In this document: one piece after another, positions 6,001 through 15,000 of the stretch
How the letters are laid out: every line of letters begins with the position of its first letter
Numbering within the stretch: position 1 is the first letter of the stretch
Assembly: GCA_039028155.1 (NCBI GenBank)
Contig: JBCCIS010000007.1
Location: 67,624 to 131,623 of the forward strand
DNA: 64,000 nt
Source of the DNA: Pseudomonadota bacterium
GTDB taxonomy: Bacteria; Pseudomonadota; Alphaproteobacteria; SP197
Reading direction: 5' to 3'
Program-made: the position numbers

Positions 6001-9000
6001 GCACCCACGCGGTCAAGCCGGGCGCTGGCGTCGAGGTGGTGCTGGATGCCCTCGATTTCGTCGAGCAACCGCTGCCGGTGCTCGCGGTGGCGTCGGAGCG
6101 CTAGCGCAACCGCGCCGACGCTTGTCTAGTCGGGTGTGTGGCAACACGCCTGCAGCTTGTTGCCGTCGAGGTCCCTGACATAGGCGCCGTAGTAGTGTTC
6201 GTGATAATGCGGGCGCGGGCCGGGTGCGCCTTCATCGGTGCCGCCTTCGGCCAGGGCGGCGGCGTGAAATGCATCGACCGCGGCGTGGTTCGGCGCCAGG
6301 AAAGCGACATGGGTGCCATTGCCATGGGTTGCCGTCTCGTCATCAAACGGTCGGCAGACGACGAGCATGAACGGATCGCCTTCGCTCTGGTACATGGCGA
6401 AACCATGCTCGGCGACCGTCTCGGTGCGCTTGATACCGAGCGGCGCCAGCGTTTTGTCGTAGAACGCCAACGCACGGTCCAGGTCGTTGGTGCCAAGGGT
6501 AATGTGACTGAGCATCGTGTCCTCCTAGATCTTCTGGTGGATGGCTATGACGCCATCTCGGATAGAGCCTGGTCCATCGCGTCGACCAGGATGTCGGCGT
6601 GCTCTCGCTTGAACGCCAGGGGCGGGCGTATCTTGATGACGTTGCCCAAGATACCTTCGCGACCGGCCAACACGCCGAGGTCCTTCATGCGGTTCAAGAC
6701 TTGCTTCATGTCGTCGGGCGCCGGTTCCTTTGTCTGGCGATCCCCCACGATCTCGACCCCCGCCATCAGGCCGTAACCGCGAACGTCGCCAATCAGCGTG
6801 TGGCGCTGCATGAGATCGCGCAGGCCGGCGCGCAGGTGCTCGCCGGTCACCCGGGCGCTTTCCATCAGCTCCTCCTGCTCGATCACGTCCAGCACGGCAT
6901 TACCCGCCGCGCAAGCAACCGGGTTGCCGCCGAACGTGCTGAACAGGCCGGTCGCGTCGCCGAACGCCTTCAGGATGTCGCGTCTGGTGATGACGGCGCC
7001 AATCGCCATGCCGTTGCCGATGGGTTTGCCCAAGGTCACGAAGTCCGCCTCGATCCCGTGGACGTCCAGCCCCCACATATGCGTGCCCGGCCGGCCAAAG
7101 CCGAATTGGACCTCGTCGGCGATGATCAGACCGCCGGCGGCCTTGACCTTCTCCGCGACCAGGCGTGGGTAGCCCTCGGGCACGTCGATGACGCCATGGT
7201 TGACGAACGATGTGTCGACCATGAAGCAGGCGGTGCCGTAACCGGCCTCGTCCAGTTCCGCGATCGCGCGATCGGCGTCGGCCGCGTAGCGCTTGGCGAG
7301 ATTCTCTTCGCCAGCAAAGTAGGGGCCGCGATAGGTGTCGGGCGCCATCAATTCGCGCACGTGCGGCGCGCGCTCTTCCTTTGTGCCCTCCGGCGACAGA
7401 TGGGCAATCGCCTCGGTGATGCCGTGATAAGCGTCGGACATGATGATCGCGCCGCGCTTTCCGGTGACCATCGTTGCCATGCGCCAGGCAATATCGTTCG
7501 CCTCGCTGCCGGAGTTGACGAAGGTGCAGGCGGTCAGATGATCCGGCAGGGTCGCGGTGAGCCGCTCGGCATACTCGATGACGCTTTCGTAGATATAGCG
7601 GGTGTGCGTGTTCAGCGTCCTTGCCTGGCGCGTCAGGGCGCGCACGACATGCGGATGGGCATGACCAACAATCGGCACGTTGTTGTAGGCATCGACATAG
7701 CGTTTGCCACGGGCGTCAAACAGCCACGGGCCCTGACCTTTGACCATATGGACCGGGCGTTCGTAGAAGATCGTCAGGTGCTTGCCCAACACGTCGTAGC
7801 GGCGCGCAAGCAGCGCATCCAAGTTGTCGTCGAGCGTCGGGTCTTCTTCGGGCGGACAATAAGGCGGGAACCGCAGGTGATGGCGCAGGCGCGCGCGTGC
7901 GGCATCGACACCGATATCCAACAGCTTCGCGATCAGCCGTTGCCCCGGCTCCTCGTACTCGCGCAGGTAATCCGGCTGCTCTGGTGTGACCGCGCGGCGC
8001 CATGCGATGATGACCGATGTCACGGCAAACCGGGTCATGATCGCGTCGAACAGCAGGTCGACCTCGTCTTCTTCCAACGTGATCACCGTATCGAAGCCGG
8101 CCGCGACATCGCACATGGCGCCGATGGGGTCGTCGACATAGGGCATCAGCGTATCGACCGCCATGGCGAGTTCGCACAGAAGCGGCGCGAAGACCATGTC
8201 GCCGAAGTCGATGACGCCTATGGTTCGGCTCTCGCCTGTGCCATCGACGACAACGTTGTTGTGGGTGGCGTCGTTGTGCACGACCTGGTGGCGCAGGCGG
8301 CGCATGCGTGGGCCGACATCGTCGATGAAATGGTCCAGGATGGTTTCGATGTTGCGGCGTGCCGTCGCGTCGTCGATGTGTTTGGTGTGGGGCCGCATGT
8401 CACCGGCGCGCATGATGTCCCAGGGGTGCGGGTTTTCCGCATGTGCATGCATGAAACCGGTCAAGGCGCGGTCAAGGCGCGCGACGGTCGCGCCGACCTC
8501 GTGCAGCAGCGGCTGATCCAGCGTTGAGTCTTCCAGCAAAGTACCGGGCAGGAACGTGACGACGCGGACCAGATGATCCATACCGTCGGCATCGGCGACC
8601 GTTTCTGTCACATTGCCGTCAAGGGACTTCACGACGCGCGGCACGACAAGCTCTGGGTCACGATCTTCGATGTGCAGCAGCGCCTGGGTCTGGAAATCGA
8701 TGACGCCGGGGTCTTCCTCGGCATTGGCGATCTTGAGGACATAGTCGCCCTTGTCGCCGGTGATGTGAAAGTTCTGGTCGCGCTCGCTTTCCAGGGAGCG
8801 AAAGGCGCCCTCCAAACCGAACAGGTCGCGGGCCATGGTTCTGGCCTCGTCCTCGCTGAAAGCGGGTGGGTTGCGATCCATGAACTTGATGTCATTGGTC
8901 GCCGGAGTCTGGGTCATGCTGTCGGACTATCCTTGGAGCCAGAGGGGGGCGCGGCGCGCGACAGGCTACTCGGCTCCTGTGACCTATCCAAGACCTGCGA

Positions 9001-12000: not shown

Positions 12001-15000
12001 ACGGCGGAGACGGCGAACGCCAGCACCTTTACCTGGGCGACGGTCACCGTGAAGTCAAAGAGGTACCAGGTGTCGAGCCCTGAATCGACGCTCTGGACGT
12101 TGCCGCTCCAGATCTGGTTCATCAATTGCTGGAACAGGATGGACAGGCCAAAGGTCGCGAGCAGGGAGATGAAGAGATCCTGATTGGCGACGCGAAAGAT
12201 CACCGTGCGGTAGGCGAGGTAGCCGACCACGAACAACACAGCGGCGGCAACCGGAATGCCGAGGAACGGGTGCGCCCCCCAGACATACAACTGGTAGGTC
12301 ACGTAGCCGCCCAGCATGACGAACTCGCCCTGGACGATGTTGATGATGTTGGTGACGCCCCAAACCAGCGCCATGCCATAGGCGGCGAGCGCGAAGATGG
12401 CGCCGATCAGAACGCCATCCAACAGCAACTGAGTCGTCAGTAAAGGCGCGTCGAAGAGAAGCTGGATGTTGTCCAACATACCGCAGCGAGATCCCGATCT
12501 ATGTCAGCGGCAAACAGGTCATGCCGGACAACCACTTGATTGGCTGTCCGGCATGCCCAGTCTGGCGTGGATTACTGGCGGTCCGACCAGGCTGGCGTCG
12601 GATGGCGAACCTCCGAGGCGGCCCACTCGGTCGGGGCGACGACCACATACTCGCCGTCCTGGACCTGATAGAGCACCATGGGCTTGGCGATGTTCTTGCC
12701 GGTCTCATCGAACTTGATGTTGCCGTAAAAGGTCTCCATCTCGGTCTCCGACAAGGCATCGCGAACGGCGTCCTTGTCCAGGCTGCCGGCACGCTCGAAT
12801 GCGTCGGCGAATACCTGAACGGCGGCCGCCGATTCCGCCGCCTGATAGGGCGGTGCGTAGCCATAGGTTTCCTCGAACAGCGTGGCGAAGTCGCCGGCCG
12901 AACCGAACAGGTCGTCGGAATAGGTCAGCGTCGGCGCCCACTGACTGGCGCAAAGCGTGTACTCCGCCGCGTCGCCATAGATGCCGATGATGTCGGCGGA
13001 ATCACAATGGGTGATCGCCAGCATCGGCACGTCGACCCGCATCTCCTCGATCTGCTTGATCGCCAGCGCCGCGCCCTTGGCGTGGCCGGAGACGACCAGG
13101 ATGTCCGGGTTCAGCTGTTTGACCGCGGCAAGTGTCGGCGCCATGTCGTTTAGTTCCGGCGGCAGCTTGTCGTCGATGATGACCTCGATGCCCAGCCTTT
13201 CGGCGTCGGCCAGCACGCCGGCGCGGATGTCTTGGCTGAACGGGTCGTTTTCGAAGACCGCGGCAAGCCGCAGCGGTTCGGTCCGGCCTTCCTCTTCGGC
13301 CAGCTGTGCCGCCAGGTCGACGGCGCTTGCCAGGTACTGCTCGGTGGTCGAGAGCACTGCGAAGAGGTAGCGGTAGCCTTCCTTGAACAGCGAGATCGAT
13401 GCGCCGTTCGCCTCGACCATGGGAATGCCGTACTGCTCGGTCACCGGCGCAATCGCCTTGGTCAGACCGGAACTGTAGGGTCCAAGCATGAATTCAACGC
13501 CGTCCTGGTTGATCAGCCGTTCGGCCAGTTGCGCGCCGCGGGCCGGCGTCGATTCATCGTCGTAGTAGATGATCTCCAGCATGTAGGTGGTGTCACCGAC
13601 CTGGACGCCGCCGTTCTGGTTGATCATGTCGACGGCAAGGTCGTAGCCGCGCTGGGTATGTTCGCCGTTGGTCGAGTACTTGCCGGTCAGCGATATGGCC
13701 GAGCCCAGCGTAATCGTGTCCTCGGCCCATGCCGTTCCGGCCCACGCGACGGCCGTGACCGCGCTCGCGCAGGCGAGTTTCCTCCATGAATACGTCATCT
13801 GAAGTCCTCCTTGTGTGTCCCGCCTGTGCGCTCCCCCGGCGGGTTGGCTTCATGTTGGCCGAGGTCGCGTGGCCTGTCCACGTCAAGTCGGTTGCTTTCG
13901 GCCGGCTCACACCCCTACTGTGCGCGCGAACGGGGACGGGACGTCTTTATTCATGTGGATCACCAGTTGTTTTGACGGCGGCAACATCGAGGTCGTCGAG
14001 CTGACCAGCGATCGCGCCGCCACGCTTGCCATACGCGACGATACCGCCGCGCCGTTTCGCCAGTGGTTCTATTTCCGTGTCGGCGCCAACAAGGGTGTTC
14101 CGCTGACCTTGACCATCGCCAACGCGGGCGAGGCGAGCTATGCCAAGGGCTGGGAGGACTATCGCGCGGTCGCCAGCCACGACCGCCGGAACTGGATCCG
14201 GGTCGATACCCGCTACCAGGACGGAGCCCTGGTGATCGAGCACACAGCGCCGGTAGATGTCGTGGAGTTCGCCTATTTCGCGCCCTATGGCCTGGCCCGC
14301 CAGGCCGACTTCCTGGCTGACGTACAGGCGCACGACGGCGTGCGGCGGGCCAGTCTGGGCCTGACCTGCGACGGGCGCCCGATCGATTATCTGGAGATCG
14401 GCGAGGGGCCGCGCCCGTGCTGGATCATCGGCCGCCAACATCCGGGCGAAACCCAGGCGTCCTGGTGGATGGAGGGTTTCCTGGACCGGTTATGCGACCC
14501 CGGTGATAGCATCGCGGCCGGGCTGCGGCGCGAGGCCACCTTCCACGTCGTGCCGAACATGAACCCGGACGGCAGTTTCCGCGGCAATCTGCGAACCAAC
14601 GCTGCCGGCGCCAACCTGAACCGCGAGTGGCAGGAGCCTTCGATGGAGACCAGCCCGGAGGTCTTCGTCGTGCGCGAACGCATGATCGAGACCGGTGTCG
14701 ACTTCATGCTGGATGTCCACGCCGACGAGGCGCTGCCCTATAACTTCGTTGTCGGGCCCTATGGCGTCCCGGGGTTGGCCGATCACGTGCTGGCTCTCAA
14801 CGAGCGCTTCTGCGAGGCACTAAAGGTGGCCAATCCGGACTTTCAGACCGAACACGGCTATCCCAGACCTTCCGCCGATGGCGCCAACCTGACAATCGCG
14901 TCAAAATACGTCGCCCATCGGTTTGATTGCTTGTCGATGACCCTGGAACAGCCCTTCAAGGACAGCGCCATCACCCCAGATCCGAACCACGGCTGGTCGC

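Follow-up and report, generated by a model that had tools for sequence, protein, structure and literature searches.

Organization of the locus

We analyzed a 64,000-nucleotide stretch of DNA, referred to here as the window, from a Pseudomonadota bacterium (GenBank assembly GCA_039028155.1, contig JBCCIS010000007.1, positions 67,624 to 131,623), with a focus on a 790-amino-acid (aa) protein that joins a kinase domain of the APH fold to a class-III pyridoxal phosphate (PLP) domain. Open reading frame (ORF) calls together with Pfam and NCBIfam searches delineate seven head-to-tail genes, all on the minus strand between positions 6126 and 13798 (Table 1): the components of a HAAT-type ATP-binding cassette (ABC) importer, namely a substrate-binding protein (SBP), two permeases and two ATPases, then the gene of the fusion protein, and lastly a small gene of the VOC (glyoxalase) fold. 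An earlier description of the same DNA (below, the sequence-only reading) had placed a single-frame fusion of 790 aa downstream of a complete same-strand importer, and both parts of this description were borne out. The motifs that it had cited lie in one frame, at residues 214 (HNDATHNN), 236 (IDFGD), 469 (SGSEAND), 601 (DEVQFGFGRPG) and 630 (GKPIGNG), while the SBP, both permeases and both ATPases were recognized by Pfam and NCBIfam. The distance that it had given between the fusion gene and the VOC gene was correct as well, and its statement that all importer genes overlap by 4 nucleotides (nt) held for livH/livM, livM/livG and livG/livF, but not for the SBP gene and livH, which are separated by a gap of 92 bp.

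The importer, fusion and VOC genes are probably co-transcribed, in which case the fusion gene would most likely be the sixth gene of an operon starting upstream of the SBP gene. A single transcription unit is suggested because two related loci that have lost the importer (L001 and L002, described below) keep the region upstream of the SBP gene directly before the fusion gene. The 103 bp that separate livF from the fusion gene contain no terminator-like hairpin, promoter-like site or Rfam match, and neither a riboswitch or other RNA element nor a convincing promoter or terminator was found in the leader or this spacer.

Table 1. Features of the importer-fusion locus and its boundaries (window coordinates)
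Feature	Position	Strand	Remarks
SBP gene of HAAT-type ABC importer	12572-13798	-	408 aa; Peripla_BP_6 (1e-58); N-terminus resembling a signal peptide (by eye)
LivH/UrtB-like permease gene	11577-12479	-	300 aa; BPD_transp_2 (4e-33); top NCBIfam match UrtB, 155 bits (cut-off 250)
LivM/UrtC-like permease gene	10615-11580	-	321 aa; BPD_transp_2 (1.2e-29); 4-nt overlap with livH
LivG-like ATPase gene	9875-10618	-	247 aa; ABC_tran and BCA_ABC_TP_C; LivG 207 bits, UrtD 202 bits; 4-nt overlap with livM
LivF-like ATPase gene	9021-9878	-	285 aa; ABC_tran; LivF 193 bits over residues 51-285; 4-nt overlap with livG
Spacer between livF and fusion gene	8918-9020	-	103 bp
Fusion gene	6545-8917	-	790 aa; APH PF01636, residues 43-258 (3.7e-25); Aminotran_3 PF00202, residues 389-785 (3.3e-72)
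Kinase half of fusion	7823-8917	-	residues 1-365; predicted HYKK type within the APH fold
PLP half of fusion	6545-7822	-	residues 366-790; predicted phospho-lyase subgroup of the class-III fold
VOC (glyoxalase-fold) gene	6126-6515	-	129 aa; Glyoxalase PF00903 (3.9e-11); 29 bp downstream of fusion gene
Intergenic region between divergent SBP and M14 genes	13799-13990	.	presumed operon promoter region
M14 carboxypeptidase gene (locus boundary)	13815-15077		divergent to importer-fusion genes
dusA (locus boundary)	5037-6104		convergent to importer-fusion genes

The fusion protein and its two halves

The fused frame is real and no assembly artefact, because 119 of the 120 best database matches are proteins of 777 to 843 residues that carry both Pfam domains, and relatives are encoded at 76 loci in representative genomes (individual loci are cited below by L numbers). 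The exact protein is deposited at NCBI as MEM7120755.1, from a Pseudomonadota metagenome-assembled genome (MAG), and its relatives, which come from Alphaproteobacteria, Chloroflexota, Desulfobacterales and other groups, are named only 'aminotransferase class III-fold PLP-dependent enzyme'. Thousands of kinase-lyase fusions exist, and the architecture is common and already described; what is new here is that in one clade the fusion is paired with a HAAT importer, which has repeatedly been lost there. Residue conservation, scored in an alignment of 183 fusions, is close to complete at the catalytic positions of both halves. The kinase half has the HxDxxxxN loop of the APH fold, the Mg-binding DxGD motif and the ATP-binding lysine, with D216, N221 and D237-x-G239-D240 invariant and K62 and H214 each kept in 182 of the 183 proteins, and the PLP half is invariant at G470-S-E-A, Y497-H-G, D601-E-V-Q and the Schiff-base lysine K631.

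When compared with all PDB sequences, the PLP half scored highest against the A1RDF1 phospholyase (5g4i, 377 bits), with human ETNPPL (6tor) second at 346 bits. No other class-III enzyme exceeded 204 bits, the value of dialkylglycine decarboxylase, and racemases and transaminases came after it. It is 45% identical to A1RDF1, 41% to ETNPPL and 38% to PHYKPL (reference sequence verified as NP_699204.1), compared with 25 to 27% for unrelated class-III enzymes encoded at the same loci. In a neighbor-joining (NJ) tree, it falls inside a clade of bacterial fusions, A1RDF1 lies within the bacterial group, and the animal pair of ETNPPL and PHYKPL forms the sister group of the bacterial fusions plus A1RDF1. 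The likeness to PHYKPL and ETNPPL that had been proposed for this half is thereby sustained, and its predicted membership of the ETNPPL/PHYKPL/A1RDF1 phospho-lyases, with the catalytic residues intact, is well supported by homology. ETNPPL and PHYKPL share 67% identity with one another and separated within animals; since this split postdates the divergence of animals and bacteria, the phylogeny cannot assign either of their substrates to the bacterial enzymes.

The placement of the kinase half rests on pairwise and NCBIfam profile scores. Human HYKK, the sequence of which was confirmed against the database, aligns with the kinase half at 27% identity over 345 residues (140 bits, E 7e-43), and the two proteins rank the NCBIfam models in the same way: the kinase section of PRK06148 scores 279 bits with the window kinase domain and 195 bits with HYKK, the homoserine kinase model (cut-off 271) scores 43 and 47 bits, respectively, and the aminoglycoside kinase models reach at most 16 bits with the window domain and are not listed for HYKK. 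By sequence, the best solved kinase in the PDB is amicoumacin kinase (E 0.002, 20 bits). These scores support HYKK, and not homoserine kinase II or the aminoglycoside, macrolide or choline kinases, as the family closest to the kinase half. They agree with the likeness to HYKK put forward in the sequence-only reading, which had named a grouping with homoserine kinase II or the aminoglycoside/macrolide kinases as the outcome that would speak against it; at the sequence level, no such grouping was seen. An identity of 27% to HYKK is, however, too low for substrate specificity to be carried over.

A different activity of the C-terminal domain has to be weighed at this point, namely that it is an ordinary omega-transaminase or another class-III enzyme (racemase, decarboxylase), with the kinase serving an unrelated or regulatory purpose. 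Such a reading would be in keeping with the generic NCBI name and with the fact that most class-III enzymes are transaminases (PMC8154272), yet it is made very unlikely by several lines of reasoning: (i) a gap of about 170 bits separates the proven lyases from all other solved class-III enzymes; (ii) the window PLP half shares one clade with A1RDF1; (iii) a PLP enzyme so constantly fused to or paired with a kinase would make no sense unless the compound that the kinase has phosphorylated is its substrate; and (iv) among the other class-III activities, PbfA, the (R)-1-hydroxy-2-aminoethylphosphonate ammonia-lyase (PMC8154272), is ruled out as an identity for the PLP half by a score of 209.8 bits against the cut-off of 525 of its NCBIfam model (NF049939). 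The comparison with PbfA is still instructive, because this class-III enzyme carries out a 1,2-elimination in place of a transamination, as is proposed for the window lyase, with the difference that it eliminates water without prior phosphorylation.

The importer and its repeated loss

HAAT importers typically carry amino acids. All five components are present in the window, every NCBIfam equivalog score for the Liv and Urt families lies under its cut-off, and the permeases score best against the urea-type (Urt) models. The best solved relative of the SBP is 8wch, a 'probable Leu/Ile/Val-binding protein', at just 93 bits. In a phmmer alignment of the SBP with a verified LivJ sequence, an alignment of low identity that is unreliable around Glu226, Ser79 is kept, while Thr102, Tyr202 and Glu226 are replaced by Ala, His and Thr, respectively; these four positions are taken here as the LivJ residues that hold the alpha-amino and alpha-carboxylate groups of the amino acid ligand. 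This low-identity comparison, together with the urea-type permease scores, would argue against a standard amino acid cargo. The LivF-like ATPase carries an N-terminal extension of about 50 aa (window 9729-9878) that is absent from LivF models, and its first 27 residues are 78% identical in a livF remnant at L083 (L083 8001-8081).

The gene order shared by the syntenic genomes is amidase, Sel1, SnoaL and M14, then importer, fusion and VOC, then dusA and NnrS. The importer and fusion genes are intact in this order at L004, L006, L009, L077 and L078, where, in comparison with the window, the fusion proteins are 52-74% identical and the importer proteins 62-89% (SBP 77-89%, LivF 70-84%). The fusion and the M14 protein are the fastest-evolving proteins of the syntenic block when these five loci are compared with the window. 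In the NJ tree, the syntenic fusions stay together with the P0005/P0008 group. We considered whether the window fusion had been swapped by transfer relative to L004 and L006, where the fusions are 54% identical and the flanking genes 61-82%, and dropped this idea, the gene being simply fast-evolving.

Within the same syntenic clade, deletion, interruption or pseudogenization has struck the importer on at least four separate occasions, whereas the fusion and VOC genes are retained, the VOC gene still lying downstream of the fusion gene at these loci with the exception of L002, where the contig is truncated. L001, the fusion protein of which is 92% identical to that of the window, and L002 have undergone clean deletions with different junctions (L001 9708-10000; L002 4728-4972), so that the region upstream of the SBP gene (the equivalent of about 13855-13990 in L001 and about 13880-13990 in L002) is joined to the last 70 bp or so of livF, or the last 30 bp or so, and is followed by the retained 103-bp spacer and the fusion gene. 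At L011, an internal deletion has left only the SBP gene and the tail of livF (L011 8435-9935), and at L079 an insertion sequence (IS) element lies within livM (L079 3-1774), whereas the L078 contig, with an identical fusion protein, is intact. L083 retains fragments of an SBP pseudogene, and the first 27 codons of its livF run into the fusion ORF (L083 7229-8081), a remnant that gene callers have merged with the fusion into an 843-aa protein (P0097). L010 is without the importer. Pairwise dN/dS values between the window and L001, which average both lineages and do not isolate the period after the deletion, are 0.08 for the fusion gene, 0.08 for the VOC gene and 0.10 for dusA; the low ratio for the fusion indicates purifying selection in this comparison with an importer-less relative. 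The importer thus reads as an accessory to, and not a requirement for, the role of the enzyme, given that relatives retain the enzyme once their importer is gone.

These observations bear on whether the importer and the enzyme are functionally tied at all. The two could be mere neighbors, with the HAAT system carrying some other small nitrogen compound (an amino acid, an amide or a urea-like compound) and the fusion acting on a substrate that is endogenous or imported by other means, such as ethanolamine from phospholipid turnover. An arrangement of this kind would fit the six loci at which the fusion and VOC genes outlast a lost or broken importer, the purifying selection on the fusion (omega 0.08), the far better conservation of the importer than of the fusion (SBP 77-89% against 52-74%), and the fusions of other clades that lie beside PotABCD-type importers or no transporter; it sits less easily with seven genes on one strand without a terminator in the spacer, with a gene order that persists where the fusions are just about 52% identical, with deletions that keep the upstream region before the fusion gene, as one transcription unit predicts, and with the uptake systems that unrelated kinase-lyase clusters have of their own. 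We give the mere-neighbor explanation appreciable, if minority, weight. That the cargo of the importer is the substrate of the enzyme is, on balance, somewhat favored, and the link between the two appears plausible but loose.

Comparable modules in other organisms

When the ORFs of the 76 loci were clustered, no neighbor was found to be conserved across the whole fusion family. The context varies by clade: PotABCD-type importers, short-chain dehydrogenases/reductases (SDRs) and AraC/GlxA regulators occur, as do phosphonate genes in Dongia, and some fusions have no such neighbors at all. Two loci, L039 and L046, also encode a standalone lyase-type class-III protein (L039 3208-4542; L046 3057-4409) that is 44-45% identical to the window PLP half and lies beside a PotABCD-like importer about 5 kb from a full fusion, giving two lyase paralogues per genome. 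In Dongia (L012, L014, L059, L060 and L066), the fusion gene follows a LysR gene and a small ORF and, as judged by eye, adjoins divergent genes for PhnW-like (aminoethylphosphonate transaminase) and PhnA-like (phosphonoacetate hydrolase) proteins at about 0.1-4 kb upstream. The Dongia fusion may act on hydroxy-aminoethylphosphonate as an alternative to PbfA, or the adjacency may be coincidental.

The animal enzymes HYKK and PHYKPL/ETNPPL belong to the same two families as the halves of the window fusion and follow the same two-step logic of phosphorylation and subsequent elimination. They are, however, separate polypeptides with no dedicated importer, whereas the window encodes one polypeptide, the PLP half of which branches outside the ETNPPL/PHYKPL pair, so that neither animal substrate is transferable to it. 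Bacterial bi- and trifunctional kinase-lyase proteins are said to have led Veiga-da-Cunha et al., in 2012, to the functions of human HYKK, ETNPPL and PHYKPL.

Among relatives of the window PLP half for which both a structure and biochemical tests are available, the closest is A1RDF1 of Paenarthrobacter aurescens TC1 (PDB 5g4i/5g4j), which Cuetos et al. reportedly found, in 2016, to be without transaminase activity. Its gene lies on plasmid pTC2 between those of a TetR regulator and an aldehyde dehydrogenase and is adjoined by genes for an APH-fold 'putative homoserine kinase' and an APC permease. As in the window, an uptake protein, an APH-fold kinase and a lyase are thus encoded together; in contrast to the window, the lyase is unfused, uptake is by an APC permease, and a TetR regulator and an aldehyde dehydrogenase, both of which the window operon lacks, are present. 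The pTC2 kinase belongs to a different APH subfamily (22% identity, 30 bits to the window kinase).

The best NCBIfam matches of the window fusion are PRK06148 (782.5 bits; cut-off 1128) and PRK06149 (615.4 bits; cut-off 973), both below their cut-offs and both in two stretches that skip model positions of about 343-585. The trifunctional proteins that these models describe have homologous kinase and lyase domains in the same order as the window fusion, but are about 975-1017 aa long and carry between the domains an extra segment of about 240 residues that the window fusion lacks. On pSymB of Sinorhizobium meliloti (L086; CP090106.1 2993380-3000562), two trifunctional genes (1017 and 976 aa) face each other across a gene for an 'amino acid ABC transporter substrate-binding protein'. 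L086 also includes a divergently oriented gene for an Lrp/AsnC regulator and adjoins the hut genes, and the host is a tractable model organism for finding the substrate.

Unfused pairs of the same kinase subfamily (37-39% identity to the window kinase), encoded by two genes and accompanied by GntR regulators, occur in Azospirillum brasilense and on IncF plasmids of Klebsiella and Escherichia coli. On A. brasilense plasmids, GntR, phosphotransferase (39% identical to the window kinase) and class-III enzyme are encoded by separate adjacent genes. An E. coli IncFIB plasmid carries genes for a semialdehyde dehydrogenase, an ABC importer and an SDR, followed by overlapping phosphotransferase (37% identical) and class-III genes; this cluster differs from the window operon in the SDR, the semialdehyde dehydrogenase and the type of ABC importer. 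A more distant parallel is the aminopropanol kinase of the mycobacterial RMM microcompartment (PDB 6ef6; Mallette & Kimber 2018), which has a class-III partner and is 17% identical to the window kinase (phmmer E 0.008); the RMM system is encapsulated in a microcompartment, unlike the locus studied here. Taken together, and with unfused and trifunctional forms known from cultured bacteria, a kinase with a phospho-lyase is a recurrent bacterial module that has a different uptake system in each lineage.

Proposed mechanism and substrate

Phosphorylation followed by elimination is well supported by homology as the predicted chemistry of the fusion, because of the lyase scores, the HYKK match and the near-invariant catalytic residues of both halves, and the 790-aa protein is, in our judgment, probably a bifunctional amino-alcohol kinase and phospho-lyase. 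In the proposed mechanism, (i) the HYKK-type domain would use a nucleoside triphosphate (NTP) to phosphorylate a hydroxyl group beside a terminal primary amine; (ii) the class-III PLP domain would form an external aldimine with the same amine and take a proton from the amine-bearing carbon; and (iii) phosphate would be expelled from the neighboring carbon, after which hydrolysis would free ammonia and an aldehyde. Analogy to other class-III enzymes suggests a dimeric protein, in which the PLP domains would make the contact and the two kinase domains would lie on opposite sides. In the window genome, the five-gene HAAT importer would probably supply the substrate.

With regard to the substrate, several observations point in different directions. 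The PotABCD-type importers found near fusions in other clades would speak for an amine, and the SDR and aldehyde dehydrogenase partners seen elsewhere recall the aminoacetone/aminopropanol pathway (PMC4207490), while the S. meliloti context suggests an amino-acid-like substrate in at least one lineage. Among individual compounds, we tentatively name ethanolamine as a possible substrate and hold 1-aminopropan-2-ol to be a less probable one; the remainder of our expectation, apart from the small part that falls to 5-hydroxylysine, goes to other vicinal amino alcohols or hydroxy-amino acids.

Free 5-hydroxy-L-lysine, the substrate of the animal HYKK/PHYKPL route, in which phosphorylation by HYKK is GTP-dependent, would give 2-aminoadipate semialdehyde as the product. 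It is suggested by HYKK being the named protein closest to the kinase half, by the usual amino acid cargo of HAAT importers and by the amino-acid-type SBP and the Lrp/AsnC regulator that the trifunctional S. meliloti relatives flank. We nevertheless consider it improbable for the following reasons: (i) the identity to HYKK is insufficient for a transfer of specificity; (ii) the PLP half is slightly nearer to the phosphoethanolamine enzymes A1RDF1 and ETNPPL than to PHYKPL, and the latter two enzymes diverged only within animals; (iii) in the low-identity alignment, three of the four LivJ ligand side chains are missing from the SBP; (iv) no lysine-pathway or aminoadipate-semialdehyde genes were found near the window fusion; and (v) the source genomes are environmental MAGs, and free hydroxylysine would be no obvious nutrient there.

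The most far-reaching interpretation, which as a complete account appears doubtful to us, is that the operon provides a self-contained, coenzyme B12-independent system that imports and degrades a free amino alcohol outside the alpha-amino acids, with ethanolamine and aminopropanol as the most plausible candidates. A HAAT SBP would here have acquired a novel type of ligand, and the phospho-intermediate would be handed from kinase to lyase within one polypeptide. Several points weigh against the reading proposed above, of a bifunctional kinase and phospho-lyase supplied by the importer: (i) the pairing of the fusion with an adjoining HAAT importer is restricted, among the 76 loci, to one alphaproteobacterial clade of genomes that share synteny with the window; (ii) the loss of the importer at L001, L002, L011, L079 and L083 and its absence at L010 argue against strict dependence on it; (iii) in contrast to the clusters on pTC2 and on the E. 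coli plasmid, the window operon has neither an aldehyde dehydrogenase nor a regulator; (iv) sequence cannot separate a lyase from a transaminase with certainty; and (v) in the literature we found no biochemical or genetic data on the window protein or any such fusion, nor a characterized bacterial kinase-lyase fusion. The importer-coupled module of the sequence-only reading stands in so far as an importer does lie upstream of the fusion in the window; as a general association it does not, with the pairing confined to one syntenic clade in which the importer has been repeatedly destroyed.

The VOC gene and flanking genes

The sequence of the VOC protein supports assignment to the general VOC fold only, and structures of relatives exist only as structural-genomics entries to which no function is attached. 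Methylglyoxal can be thought of as arising from aminoacetone (PMC4207490), and a role of the VOC protein as a glyoxalase I (GloA) detoxifying it was considered and rejected, the NCBIfam model NF050074 giving 23.9 bits against a cut-off of 165 and nothing else linking the two.

Beyond dusA, a 489-aa ORF (window 3341-4810, plus strand) encodes an acidic, Gly/Asp-rich, repetitive protein that looks secreted and is possibly beta-helix-like; neither Pfam nor NCBIfam gave a match. In L077 and L078, NnrS lies directly next to dusA, so this ORF looks like a lineage-specific insertion in the window. On the other side of the operon, the neighborhood is rich in genes for peptide- and amide-degrading enzymes, with an amidase (16313-17737) and two tandem M17 leucyl-aminopeptidase paralogues (20902-22278 and 22285-23661, plus strand) in addition to the M14 carboxypeptidase. 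A 792-aa transketolase/E1-like protein is encoded at 17835-20213 on the minus strand.

Conclusions

If the proposed chemistry is correct, many environmental bacteria could release ammonia from amino alcohols with no need for coenzyme B12, using one polypeptide and one NTP per molecule, and, if the self-contained B12-independent uptake and breakdown route holds, the thousands of related fusions found in uncultured Alphaproteobacteria and Chloroflexota would represent an overlooked and widespread form of nitrogen scavenging from amino alcohols. The window offers a clean system in which to test these proposals, as it combines an importer and an enzyme with natural variants in which the importer has been deleted. 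With the substrate assigned, thousands of genes that now bear a generic 'aminotransferase' label could be annotated correctly, and it would become clear whether the hydroxylysine and ethanolamine pathways of animals descend from a bacterial catabolic module.

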